From positions 3,168,001 to 3,232,000 of the forward strand of contig OZ220732.1 in assembly GCA_965116905.1 (NCBI GenBank): a stretch of 64,000 nt of DNA. The letters are read 5' to 3'. The notes beneath the pieces were generated by a model. It was not told the origin of the DNA and ran no database searches. It saw nothing but the letters and a program-made list of their open reading frames with translations. Origin of the DNA: Longimicrobiales bacterium (GTDB lineage: Bacteria; Gemmatimonadota; Gemmatimonadetes; Longimicrobiales; Gaopeijiaceae). A program made the position numbers and the translations under genes. Positions 10,588 to 13,247 of this stretch are shown one piece after another. Numbering within the stretch: position 1 is the first letter of the stretch; the number at the start of each line of letters is the position of its first letter.

Positions 10588-10592
10588 TGACA

Positions 10593-10625
10593 CCGGCGGG
10601 CCCCTCACGGTGAGGAGCCCGCCGG
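10593..10625. terminator. Strong GC hairpin between convergent transcription units
   Basis: CCGGCGGGC-c-CCTCA-cgg-TGAGG-a-GCCCGCCGG, 5 nt after the bshB1 stop; no U-tract. Confidence 0.6.
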
Positions 10626-10636
10626 ATACGTCGCCG

Positions 10637-10671
10637 CCACCCTGGACCGGCGTTTTCTTCCGGCCCGGTGG
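10637..10671. terminator. Imperfect hairpin right after the last peptide gene
   Basis: CCACC-ctggaCCGG...CCGGccc-GGTGG inverted repeat abutting the stop at 10673. Confidence 0.4.
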
Positions 10672-10672
10672 A

Positions 10673-10921
10673 TCACATGATCGGACCCGGTGGCGAGAAC
10701 CCGTTACAGCACCAGGGCATCCCGGGCATACACGGGATCGGCACACAGATGACCCAGGTGCCCATTCGCACCTCCCACCACTGGCCGGCGGCCGGTGCCG
10801 CGGCAGCCGAATCATATGCTCCCGTCCCGGGAGCGGAAACCAACAGCGCCGCCGTAACGCCCGCGATCTTCGCGGCTCTGGCCGCGGTGGTCGCCAGGCG
10901 CTCCATTACTTTGACTTGCAT
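10673..10921 (-). CDS. Putative secreted Cys-rich peptide precursor 3 (82 aa)
   Basis: MQVKVMERLATTAARAAKIAGVTAALLVSAPGTGAYDSAAAAPAAGQWWEVRMGTWVICVPIPCMPGMPWCCNGFSPPGPIM; GGAAGGG upstream; alternative start 10906; shares motif with its two neighbours. Confidence 0.8.
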   Translation of the reverse strand: MQVKVMERLATTAARAAKIAGVTAALLVSAPGTGAYDSAAAAPAAGQWWEVRMGTWVICVPIPCMPGMPWCCNGFSPPGPIM

Positions 10922-10968
10922 GACAATCACCCTTCCGCGGGAACAATCCCGCCGTTTATCCTCCGTGC

Positions 10969-11217
10969 TCAGAACAGGACGGGACCGCAACAGGTCGGGG
11001 CACCGCCACACGCGTAGTGGGTGCATATCTTCAGCACCCCAAACCAGACGACGAGCTTGTGGGGCCCCGACTGGGCGCTCGCTACGGTTTCAACCGGCAC
11101 GCCGCCGTCCGGTAGCGCCGGCACGACTGCTGTCAGCGCCGCGACCATACCCAACACCTTCACGCCCGCGCGTACCCCCCGCGTGCGGCCTGCAACTCTT
11201 CCGAATGTCTTTGGCAT
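10969..11217 (-). CDS. Putative secreted Cys-rich peptide precursor 2 (82 aa)
   Basis: MPKTFGRVAGRTRGVRAGVKVLGMVAALTAVVPALPDGGVPVETVASAQSGPHKLVVWFGVLKICTHYACGGAPTCCGPVLF; purine-rich AAGGGAAGAGGAA directly before the ATG. Confidence 0.8.
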   Translation of the reverse strand: MPKTFGRVAGRTRGVRAGVKVLGMVAALTAVVPALPDGGVPVETVASAQSGPHKLVVWFGVLKICTHYACGGAPTCCGPVLF

Positions 11218-11234
11218 TTCCTCTTCCCTTTTTG

Positions 11235-11471
11235 TTAGAAGTGAGGGTTCTCGTAGCAACACCAGCCACCCCAGCAAACCCCCCAACAGATGCGTAGCTT
11301 CCCCATCCCGATTACGTGTTCCCATATCTGCTCGCCAGCCGCTTCTGCCCCGGCCGCCACGGCCGGAACCTTCGCCGCCGGTGCGCCCGCGGAGAACGCG
11401 ACCGCTGCTCCCATGATCGCCGCGCGCACCAACCAAGCACGGCGCACAACACGTCTCTTGCTTCCCTTCAT
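11235..11471 (-). CDS. Putative secreted Cys-rich peptide precursor 1 (78 aa)
   Basis: MKGSKRRVVRRAWLVRAAIMGAAVAFSAGAPAAKVPAVAAGAEAAGEQIWEHVIGMGKLRICWGVCWGGWCCYENPHF; RBS AAGGAG 7 nt upstream. Confidence 0.82.
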   Translation of the reverse strand: MKGSKRRVVRRAWLVRAAIMGAAVAFSAGAPAAKVPAVAAGAEAAGEQIWEHVIGMGKLRICWGVCWGGWCCYENPHF

Positions 11472-11535: not shown

Positions 11536-12099
11536 TCACCGAATTGCACCCATCACGCGTCTCTTGAGAAACCCCTCCAGCCCAAGCGAGTCCGTGGCCG
11601 AACGCCAATCCTCGGCTTCGCTCGTGGGGAGCACCGCCTCGACAATGCCAAATCTGTTCGTGACGTAGAACAGGCCCGTCTCCGCCCGTCCGAACGCTCG
11701 GACATAGTCGGATCGACTACGCACTTCGGTCCTCGCTGAAACCCGCTGGGAGCGGAGAAAGCCCGCGACCAGGTCGCGATCCGCATCCCCGCGCTCCCCC
11801 ACCGCCACCGCAACCACCTCGAGGCGGTCGCCCAGGCGATGCTGGAGCGCACGCACCGCTCTCGCGGGGTCCGTGAGCGTGCATCCCAGGCACTCCCTGG
11901 CGTCGAAAACCCACACCAGCACCGGACCGCGTCCAGAGAACCCCAGCCCAGGCAGAGCGTCACCAATGCCGGGGGCACCTCCGTCCCGCGACGAACATGC
12001 CGCGACCATGCTGGCAAAAAGGAGCATGGCGGCAGCCCGATGCGTGGCGAGGCCAGCCGCGCAGGTGCGGCCTCCGCGTACAACGACGGACCGCGTCAT
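11536..12099 (-). CDS. Thioredoxin-fold (TlpA/ResA-like) CxxC putative lipoprotein
   Basis: ATGA overlap with the upstream stop; lipobox-like MLLFASMVAAC; PVLVWVFDARECLGC followed by a helix and LEVVAVAV strand. Confidence 0.7.
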   Translation of the reverse strand: MTRSVVVRGGRTCAAGLATHRAAAMLLFASMVAACSSRDGGAPGIGDALPGLGFSGRGPVLVWVFDARECLGCTLTDPARAVRALQHRLGDRLEVVAVAVGERGDADRDLVAGFLRSQRVSARTEVRSRSDYVRAFGRAETGLFYVTNRFGIVEAVLPTSEAEDWRSATDSLGLEGFLKRRVMGAIR

Positions 12100-13247
12100 G
12101 GCTGCACACCACCCTTCCAACGCGCCACCAGCCACCGATTCGGCAGTACCGAGGCGGGATCATCGAAGTAGAACAGATCCTGCTCCACGGCCAACAGTTG
12201 CGGCATGTTGGCCGCACCCAGCAGTTGCCGCCCCTCCCGGTCGATGATCAGCACATCCCACACGGCATCCATGCCTCGCGACTGCATGGACGTCACCACC
12301 AGACTGCCGTCATCAAGAACGGACACCCCGAACACCTGAGTGAACCGGTCAAGGGCGTCCCCGCCGGCGTCGGCATCCGGGATGCTCTCCCCGACCCTGG
12401 GCAGGGTGCCCATGGGCCTCACCACCGGAAGCGGGATCTCCTCCAGTCGATCCCCTTGGCGGTTGAACTTGTAGAGGGTGTCCGACAGCGCCCACCCGGC
12501 CCAGATCGTATCCGCTTCCAGCGCAGCGAAGGCGCCCTGAAACGTGAGAGCGTAGCCGAGGGATTCCTCCGGCACCCCCATGGGAAGAAAACTGCGTTCG
12601 ATGTCCCCCGTACGGCGGTTCCAGATGTGAAGAAGACTCGGTGCCCCTTCAGCCTGCAGCGTGCCGGTCAGCAGATACCGATCTTCGCCGAGATCGTGTG
12701 CTCCCTGCACCGCGGTGATCGGCGACACGACGATATCGGGGTCCCCACCGGAAGCCGGGAAGAATGTCAGCCGGGCAAGCTGGAGGTCCGCGACCACGAT
12801 GCCGCCATCGAGGGTTCGGTGGGCCGTCAGCGGGAACAGAAACTCTCCCGGCCCCTCGCCCCTGCTACCCACAACGCGCCGCAGACGCCCATCGGTGCCG
12901 TAGACGTTGACCTGGCCCTCCATCGGCTCCGCCAACAGGAATGTGCCGTCTCCACCGAGGTTGACCATCGGCTGCACCATCATGGCCTCGTCGGTCTCTT
13001 CCAGCTCGAGTTCGGAGACCACTTCGAATGCCTCGTGGAACGCGGCCATGTCGACCAGCTCCGGAGGCGCGGCAGGATCGGGCGGTGGCGGAGGAGGATC
13101 GGTATCGGCCGTGTCGCAGGCCAACGCCGCCAGCAACAGGAGGAAACCGGGGACCTGGCCAGGGATTGTATAGGGCTCGCCCATGTATCGGGCGGCGCAA
13201 CCGGATCGGGTCTTCTGGCGGTTCCGGCGGTTCTCCGGCATCGGCAT
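12096..13247 (-). CDS. 6-bladed beta-propeller (NHL/TolB-like) putative lipoprotein
   Basis: RBS GGAGGGAG before ATG 13247 (alternative 13184); lipobox LLLLAALAC; Pro linker; VYGTDGRLRRVVGSRGEGPGEF and repeated blade ends (YKFNRQGD, IIDREGR). Confidence 0.78.
   Translation of the reverse strand: MPMPENRRNRQKTRSGCAARYMGEPYTIPGQVPGFLLLLAALACDTADTDPPPPPPDPAAPPELVDMAAFHEAFEVVSELELEETDEAMMVQPMVNLGGDGTFLLAEPMEGQVNVYGTDGRLRRVVGSRGEGPGEFLFPLTAHRTLDGGIVVADLQLARLTFFPASGGDPDIVVSPITAVQGAHDLGEDRYLLTGTLQAEGAPSLLHIWNRRTGDIERSFLPMGVPEESLGYALTFQGAFAALEADTIWAGWALSDTLYKFNRQGDRLEEIPLPVVRPMGTLPRVGESIPDADAGGDALDRFTQVFGVSVLDDGSLVVTSMQSRGMDAVWDVLIIDREGRQLLGAANMPQLLAVEQDLFYFDDPASVLPNRWLVARWKGGVQP

Follow-up and report, generated by a model that had tools for sequence, protein, structure and literature searches.

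The window analysed here, a stretch of 64,000 nucleotides (positions 3168001-3232000 of the contig labelled G000:C1) on the 4.2 Mb single-contig genome of an uncultured Gemmatimonadota bacterium, carries three small genes for cysteine-rich peptides directly behind genes encoding a beta-propeller and a thioredoxin-like protein. Together, these genes make up a real, conserved and apparently undescribed peptide-propeller-thioredoxin module. A sequence-only reading of this DNA had described the peptides as hypervariable paralogues on one cysteine scaffold, and was silent on what proved to be the main point, the two partner genes directly upstream.

Three conserved genes encode peptides with a fixed cysteine frame

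Peptides A (11235..11471, 78 aa), B (10969..11217, 82 aa) and C (10673..10921, 82 aa) are all encoded on the minus strand. Their shared layout runs from a basic N-terminus through a hydrophobic stretch and a Pro/Ala spacer to an A-x-A site, with C-x3/4-C-x4-6-CC near the C-terminus. Peptide A combines a predicted signal and its spacer with AEA44, a hairpin pattern and the core C-WGV-C-WGGW-CC; in peptide B, ASA48 is followed by Gln and the core reads C-THYA-C-GGAPT-CC; the core of peptide C is C-VPIP-C-MPGMPW-CC. Translation confirmed the three cores, the loop lengths (3/4, 4/5 and 4/6) and the sizes given in the sequence-only reading. The sites it listed (AEA44, ASA48 and APA44, with products of 34, 34 and 38 aa) are present as stated, but APA44 is not conserved among the orthologues of peptide C, whose cleavage position is therefore uncertain. 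Two of the genes were indeed hidden in longer open reading frames, B within a 155-aa call and C within a 117-aa call. A purine-rich stretch resembling a ribosome-binding site lies 5' of each start (GGAG, GAGG and GGAAGG).

Pairwise identity among A, B and C is 31-33%. Orthologues are 45-77% identical for peptide A (8 genomes), 46-88% for peptide B and 40-68% for peptide C. Same-slot orthologues are 40-88% identical, which makes A, B and C old paralogues that have been maintained separately; calling them hypervariable was an overstatement. Stops, frameshifts or lost cysteines in relatives had been named as observations that would speak against the peptides; in all eight close relatives holding the A-B-C trio, the frames are open and the four cysteines invariant. 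The three genes are real, conserved and coding, and their description as paralogous, likely exported peptides on a fixed cysteine frame is supported.

Neither A, B nor C matched Pfam or NCBIfam. The AlphaFold model of peptide A (mean pLDDT 55) has a helix at 4-28 and strands at 52-56 and 59-63, and is too weak to give disulfide connectivity; a Foldseek search with this low-confidence model found nothing. A search of the ESM Atlas gave a single match, at 0.75. Contigs of sponge metatranscriptome X1 covered 29 of 30 bins at flat depth, with genes of both strands and a gap over peptide B; strand and level are not resolvable in these contigs, and DNA carry-over is possible.

The peptide genes lie behind propeller and thioredoxin-like genes

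On the minus strand, the gene order is propeller, thioredoxin-like protein, then peptides A, B and C, and the peptide genes likely end an operon headed by the two partner genes. The block sits between a phosphomannomutase-like gene (pgm) and the convergent bshB1, a slot occupied by propeller, thioredoxin-like and peptide genes only. Genes for ABC permeases lie nearby on the opposite strand and are retained at loci that lack the cassette. Between bshB1 and peptide C, two G+C-rich hairpins (10588..10672) without a T-run fold at -56 kcal/mol as minus strand, a value without shuffle control. They are a possible transcript end; the terminator scan made no call at 10588..10672, and the promoter/terminator scan performed at chance level.

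The thioredoxin-like gene (11536..12099, minus strand) encodes a predicted TlpA/ResA-like lipoprotein of 187 aa with a CLGC motif and a lipobox-like AAC. Its start overlaps the stop of the propeller gene (ATGA), which occupies 12096..13247 on the minus strand (likely start 13247) and encodes a predicted six-bladed NHL-like beta-propeller lipoprotein with a lipobox-like ALAC.

The thioredoxin-like profile matched YkuV, ResA and StoA weakly (E 0.03-0.05), with the CxxC in register. Among 42 aligned family members, CxxC is found in 41 and its second Cys in all 42; the cis-Pro position holds Pro in 18/42 and Gly in the window's copy. R43 and R79 are invariant. Of 26 distant loci, 13 have lost the first Cys, normally the nucleophile; 12 of these are among the 24 distant loci that bear peptides, and their peptides still contain four Cys. 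A role as classical CxxC oxidase can therefore not be universal, and because the second Cys is never lost and the first often is, any catalysis in those lineages would need one thiol. Judged by these residues, the thioredoxin-like protein is atypical, with cis-Pro absent from the window's copy and a first Cys often lost in distant lineages. Across loci L137-L150 and L174-L184, one large clade of the family keeps the second Cys only (YLTC, WLTC, YLQC, FRVC, LIRC and others), an unusual monothiol form. Peptides with six cysteines co-occur with an intact CxxC (9/9 vs 3/15, Fisher p 3e-4), an association that was not counted because the tree gives one independent pair.

The propeller matched PF17170 at E 4e-4, below the cut-off. 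Its AlphaFold model (pLDDT 90) has six blades, and the nearest Foldseek matches were NHL domains and Bacteroides BF0058/BVU_1028 (4raa, 3s9j). With a subfamily profile, the window's propeller scored 524 bits and distant trio members 151-342, whereas the other 96 matched ORFs of the genome scored at most 74; this gap ties the propeller subfamily to the C-x3/4-C-x4-6-CC frame. Residues E23, P32, E49, D195, P303, P308 and N309 are conserved in near (39) and distant (24) members, and the secondary structure of the model would place them in top-face loops. One propeller serves 1-3 peptides, which share little beyond the hairpin pattern and the cysteines.

Three other ideas about the propeller did not hold. 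A hypervariable top face, as expected of one-to-one immunity, was not seen (mean entropy 1.2 in top loops vs 1.44 in bottom loops). Peptide-adjacent propellers of the genome fall in several clades rather than one. The propeller of PAL-type amidating lyases carries, on its top face, several conserved metal ligands (His/Tyr/Arg); by alignment rather than superposition, this ligand set is absent from 63 propellers, which share one invariant His only (H146, in a strand).

Peptides and partners are inherited and lost jointly

The sequence-only reading had proposed a profile search of related genomes. Across 53 genomes of the genus, the peptide profile matched 37 and the thioredoxin-like profile 38, all 37 being among those 38. 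At the loci of the 37 peptide-bearing genomes, the thioredoxin gene is adjacent in 37/37 and the propeller whole in 36/37. One to three peptides lie downstream of the propeller and thioredoxin genes at the same chromosomal site; in second loci, the peptide comes first. Ten peptide-negative genomes were inspected: in four, pgm adjoins bshB1; in three, the slot is filled by unrelated propellers; a short propeller remnant is left in one and a thioredoxin gene with a propeller remnant in another, and the last has no recognised marker beside bshB1. At L109, L110 and L116, unrelated propellers, some fragmented, fill the cassette slot without thioredoxin-like or peptide genes.

Sister loci whose flanks are 95% identical differ by the clean loss of all three gene types (L117 vs L105, L114 vs L023), and the bshB1 tree of 46 loci requires six state changes in module presence. 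In both genomes with a truncated propeller (L115 and L028), the peptide is gone or leaderless and the thioredoxin gene retained. In L105 (3615-5351, minus strand), propeller and thioredoxin are fused in frame into a 578-aa protein with two intact peptides downstream, the one such case among four sets of loci scanned.

Outside the genus, 24 of 26 fetched thioredoxin-profile loci, three of which had seeded the profiles, contained a peptide of this frame whose core has four or six Cys; a contig end and a generic TlpA without propeller account for the two misses. Newly found propeller-subfamily loci held a same-frame peptide in 10/16 cases, and no intact peptide within 2 kb flanks in the other 6/16. 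In L186, L189 and L190, peptide and propeller are present and the thioredoxin gene is missing or broken. The trio occurs in five family codes of the phylum, and no regulator or transporter gene travels with it in the loci inspected. Collectively, these data indicate that peptides, propeller and thioredoxin-like protein are one module, inherited and lost jointly.

Some loci have been rearranged. At L107 (3794-4114, plus strand), an in-frame deletion fuses the leader of the first peptide to the third, leaving a chimera in place of the three peptides of its sister L104. At L068 (5564-8596), the peptide is separated from the full bshB1 by a partial bshB1 duplicate and one extra propeller ORF.

A hairpin pattern and four cysteines are the conserved element of the peptides

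The core set comprised 75 distinct homologues, leaving out the leaderless copy of L028 and one duplicate. All 75 keep C-x3/4-C-x4-6-CC. Before Cys1, 85-93% have a hydrophobic residue at positions -8, -6, -3 and -1, and 56/75 have Gly or Trp at -5. This alternation is suggestive of a two-stranded hairpin, which the low-confidence model of peptide A draws as well. On these alignments, the conserved element of the peptides is the predicted hydrophobic hairpin together with the four cysteines. Core charge ranges from -7 to +5 (mean 0.2), and the core Cys count is nearly always even.

Among 74 leaders (one chimera left out), A-x-A is found in 66 and small-x-A-Q in 38. A site was called in 71 peptides, and in 53 of them the A-x-A(-Q) precedes Cys1 by 15-18 residues. 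Signal peptidase I usually cuts closer to the hydrophobic stretch than the 10-19 residues that separate it from A-x-A here, which leaves a retained membrane anchor as a possibility. Two other export routes were considered and rejected: a lipobox is found in 0/74 leaders, and RR-x-x-hydrophobic, the mark of Tat export, in only 19/74 and in neither B nor C.

No Pfam, NCBIfam or PDB family fits the peptides: the 73 aligned homologues had no meaningful Pfam match (best E 0.013), no NCBIfam match at 0.01 and no match to PDB sequences beyond the signal region. A profile search of 1.84 billion cluster representatives returned 62 matches, 61 of them small proteins with the same frame; among ten weaker cluster matches that were looked up, two clusters were named 'hypothetical protein, Candidatus Palauibacter'. 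An indexed search gave 24 matches, none with a Pfam domain.

No positive selection is detected on the peptides

Pooled NG86 estimates over five genomes gave whole-gene dN/dS of 0.41 for peptide A, 0.68 for B and 0.53 for C, compared with 0.38 for the thioredoxin-like gene, 0.22 for the propeller, which is thus more constrained than the peptides, 0.16 for pgm and 0.15 for bshB1. Site models were fitted to 105 core codons from nine genomes with our own codon-model code and one concatenated tree without recombination, and have limited power. Model M2a did not improve on M1a: the LRT was 0 for each of four F3x4 starts and of three starts under equal codon frequencies, a positively selected class gaining nothing. 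Approximately 43% of core sites are constrained (omega ~0.1); the rest, at ~1, look neutral. Pooled NG86 had given omega above 1 in peptide B only (loops 2.3 and non-Cys core 1.3, from few sites, falling to 1.0 once the most distant genome is dropped), a signal that the likelihood test rejects.

Diversifying selection, which had been suggested by the variable loops, is not supported: M2a was no better than M1a, and the peptides are old paralogues with stable orthologues. The proposed comparison of leader and core went the same way, leaders and cores evolving at similar rates (M0 omega 0.46 vs 0.41). One homologue (P0003), 79% identical to peptide A, has a changed core and a nearly unchanged leader, which hints at fast core change between close strains, below the reach of a nine-genome test.

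Cysteine-rich exported ORFs adjoin other propellers of the genome

The genome has 114 propeller-profile matches. Of its small ORFs, 29 combine a signal-like leader with an even Cys count of at least four, and 12 of these lie within 1.5 kb of a same-strand propeller (random placement: mean 1.5, maximum 7 of 2000). Counted as clusters, 8/22 are beside propellers vs 1.2 expected (maximum 6 in 1000 random placements). These ORFs include unrelated frames, two with their own CxxC neighbours.

Several loci outside the window deserve mention. A second six-Cys exported-type family ending in C-x4-C-x6-CC is found at G000:C1:364753-371777, 729070-729312 and 922180-922425; its four copies each adjoin a propeller of one well-supported clade, and the 364-371 kb cluster has a CPQC protein. 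At G000:C1:942109-948615, one strand encodes three propellers, two related four-Cys exported-type peptides and a CPAC protein, presumably DsbA-like from its motif; by its predicted products, this locus follows the logic of the trio using unrelated parts. Related eight-Cys exported-type peptides (CC-x8/9-CC-x2-CC) occur at G000:C1:714311-714532, 950744-951025 and 2797771-2798061, one abutting a propeller.

Other features of the contig are listed for completeness. Four tandem ORFs of 96-111 aa with signal-like leaders, hydrophobic Gly/Ala-rich cores and C-x2-C and C-x3-C motifs (G000:C1:3900681-3901963) look like a bacteriocin-type precursor array, with no propeller nearby. An array of 17 tRNA genes lies beside a propeller gene group (G000:C1:1296478-1298432), and the genome has a tRNA-Sec. 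A 108-aa Cys/Trp ORF (G000:C1:938305-938631) resembles, we presume, the small subunit of quinohemoprotein amine dehydrogenase.

Proposed mechanism and alternative explanations

We hypothesize that the module is a dedicated system that folds exported mini-proteins through disulfides and holds or binds them, a reading offered tentatively and at slightly below an even chance. A single transcript would run from the propeller through peptide C. The peptides would be exported by Sec and cut by signal peptidase at A-x-A, often leaving an N-terminal Gln. Propeller and thioredoxin-like lipoproteins would pair on the membrane like a split SOQ1/NHLRC2, the conserved top face of the propeller holding either the peptide hairpin or the thioredoxin; by analogy, E23, E49 and D195 of the propeller with R43 and R79 of the thioredoxin may parallel the acidic-basic pairing of SOQ1. 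The thioredoxin-like protein would likely form or correct the peptide disulfides, and the propeller would likely bind the peptides. As adjacent cysteines (here C3-C4) rarely pair, the two disulfides would be C1-C3/C2-C4 or C1-C4/C2-C3. The folded mini-protein would then be released and its free loops would bind a target outside, most likely a protein of competing bacteria. This last step is the weakest and antagonism of other bacteria a first guess; an antibacterial role has no direct support, with a mean charge of 0.2 and no positive selection. In a broader and rather unlikely form, the proposal would cover a phylum-wide class in which each cysteine frame has its own propeller subfamily and a thioredoxin-like protein built on a single invariant Cys, the propeller reading the hairpin and leaving the loops free, and in which the ~100 peptide-less propellers per genome would be receptors or traps for peptides of other strains.

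An alternative is that the peptides are antibacterial and the propeller is a trapping immunity protein, with the thioredoxin-like protein as an optional folding helper and the peptide-less propellers as orphan immunity genes. No intact peptide was seen beside a broken propeller (L115, L028), propellers without peptides occur (6/16 loci; 114 profile matches), the module has been lost repeatedly as a unit, and unrelated Cys-rich exported ORFs adjoin propellers more often than expected (8/22 clusters vs 1.2). We nevertheless consider toxin-immunity improbable: one conserved propeller accompanies up to three peptides only 31-33% alike, charge is near neutral and positive selection is not seen, and in the text available for bacteroidetocins, the flanking genes tested gave no immunity and no propeller appears (PMC6671954). 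We give equally little weight to the view that propeller and thioredoxin form a membrane-bound sensor and that the peptide, never released, serves it as small subunit, redox shuttle or metal-binding cap. The long Pro/Ala spacer after the hydrophobic stretch, the invariant adjacent cysteines, the second Cys as sole invariant residue of the thioredoxin motif and the one stable chromosomal site across the genus would all fit, but the placing of A-x-A(-Q) before Cys1 (53/71) fits cleavage, even core Cys counts fit internal disulfides, copy number varies from 1 to 3 with near-neutral loops, and no regulator or transporter gene accompanies the module in the loci inspected.

Conotoxin-like, host-directed effectors diversifying against an animal target are very improbable. 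The DNA is present in runs labelled sponge metagenome, C-C-CC is conotoxin framework XVI (the portion of PMC4278219 available), and homologues are named in Candidatus Palauibacter; against this stand the lack of positive selection, the occurrence of frame and partners together in five family codes of the phylum, and the lack of sequence similarity to any toxin family or solved structure. That the genes are chance ORFs or decayed sequence, as the automatic calls placing B and C in longer frames might suggest, has practically no probability left and is already refuted by conservation: dN/dS is below 1, frames are intact and cysteines invariant in all orthologues examined, and 61/62 cluster matches are small same-frame proteins.

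Disulfide-rich mini-proteins are a hallmark of venoms and of animal and plant defence, and to our knowledge few bacterial families have been described. The module offers at least 75 natural variants of one scaffold of 30-40 residues with candidate folding machinery next door, from peptides that are annotated as hypothetical or hidden in wrong ORF calls. It also suggests a function that could be tested for six-bladed propeller lipoproteins, which are uncharacterised and abundant, as the 114 profile matches of this genome show. Should the propeller-thioredoxin pair prove to be a split unit of SOQ1/NHLRC2 type whose client is known, it would provide a simple model of substrate handling by that domain pair. 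No description of a peptide-propeller-thioredoxin module was found in the literature searched, mostly open papers; a term search of the main text of a comparison of marine Gemmatimonadota found no mention of propellers or NHL (PMC11316326).

Comparison with known systems

As in TlpA/ResA oxidoreductases, a CxxC stands at the start of helix 2 of the thioredoxin-like protein (CLGC; 41/42 members); their cis-Pro is replaced by Gly in the window's copy and kept in 18/42. In Bacteroidota, NVEALA (PF14055) peptides adjoin DUF5128/TolB-like propellers. The module is similar in placing a small exported Cys-rich protein beside a lipoprotein propeller of six blades; the propeller of the window also has a weak PF17170 match and a fold like that of Bacteroides BF0058. 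Unlike NVEALA proteins, 0/73 peptides match PF14055 at E 0.1; in the genome-level PF14055 search, no control genome matched. The name NVEALA appears in no paper of the literature searched, and it denotes a system without described function.

In conotoxins, the mature region characteristically evolves faster than the signal. The module peptides are unlike them in being bacterial, in lacking sequence similarity, in having a hairpin pattern before Cys1 and in a mature region that evolves no faster than the leader. They share the four-Cys order of framework XVI conotoxins such as qc16a, which is C-C-CC, and the build of signal, spacer and Cys-rich core, as far as the accessible part of the source goes (PMC4278219). 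With matching order but no Pfam, NCBIfam or PDB match, the conotoxin likeness is an analogy only, as the sequence-only reading had said.

Bacteroidetocins (class IIf), as described in the available part of PMC6671954, have double-glycine leaders of 15-16 aa, an ABC transporter/peptidase and a transmembrane protein; the first two described were cationic, and a thiol oxidoreductase is needed for full activity. The module resembles these clusters in having a small four-Cys exported peptide beside a dedicated thiol oxidoreductase (adjacent in 37/37 genomes of the genus; fold E 0.03-0.05). It differs from class IIf and IIa bacteriocins, as far as these accounts reach, in Sec-type leaders of 44-48 aa with A-x-A (66/74) instead of double glycine and in a pgm-bshB1 slot without a peptidase-containing ABC transporter; compared with bacteroidetocins, a propeller lipoprotein is present and the cores are near neutral.

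In SOQ1, the thioredoxin is docked on the NHL top face, basic thioredoxin residues pairing with acidic residues of the propeller top (10.1101/2021.03.16.435614, seen in part). Unlike SOQ1 and NHLRC2, neither of which is among the PDB sequence matches of the partner proteins, the propeller and thioredoxin-like parts of the module are normally two separate predicted lipoproteins, the fusion in L105 has the reversed order, the motif is CLGC instead of CCINC, and dedicated small peptides are present that the portion available of that account does not describe. Similarly to SOQ1/NHLRC2, it combines a TlpA-like thioredoxin fold with a six-bladed NHL propeller, fused in one genome (L105), and as in SOQ1, acidic residues are conserved on the predicted top face of the propeller and Arg on the thioredoxin.
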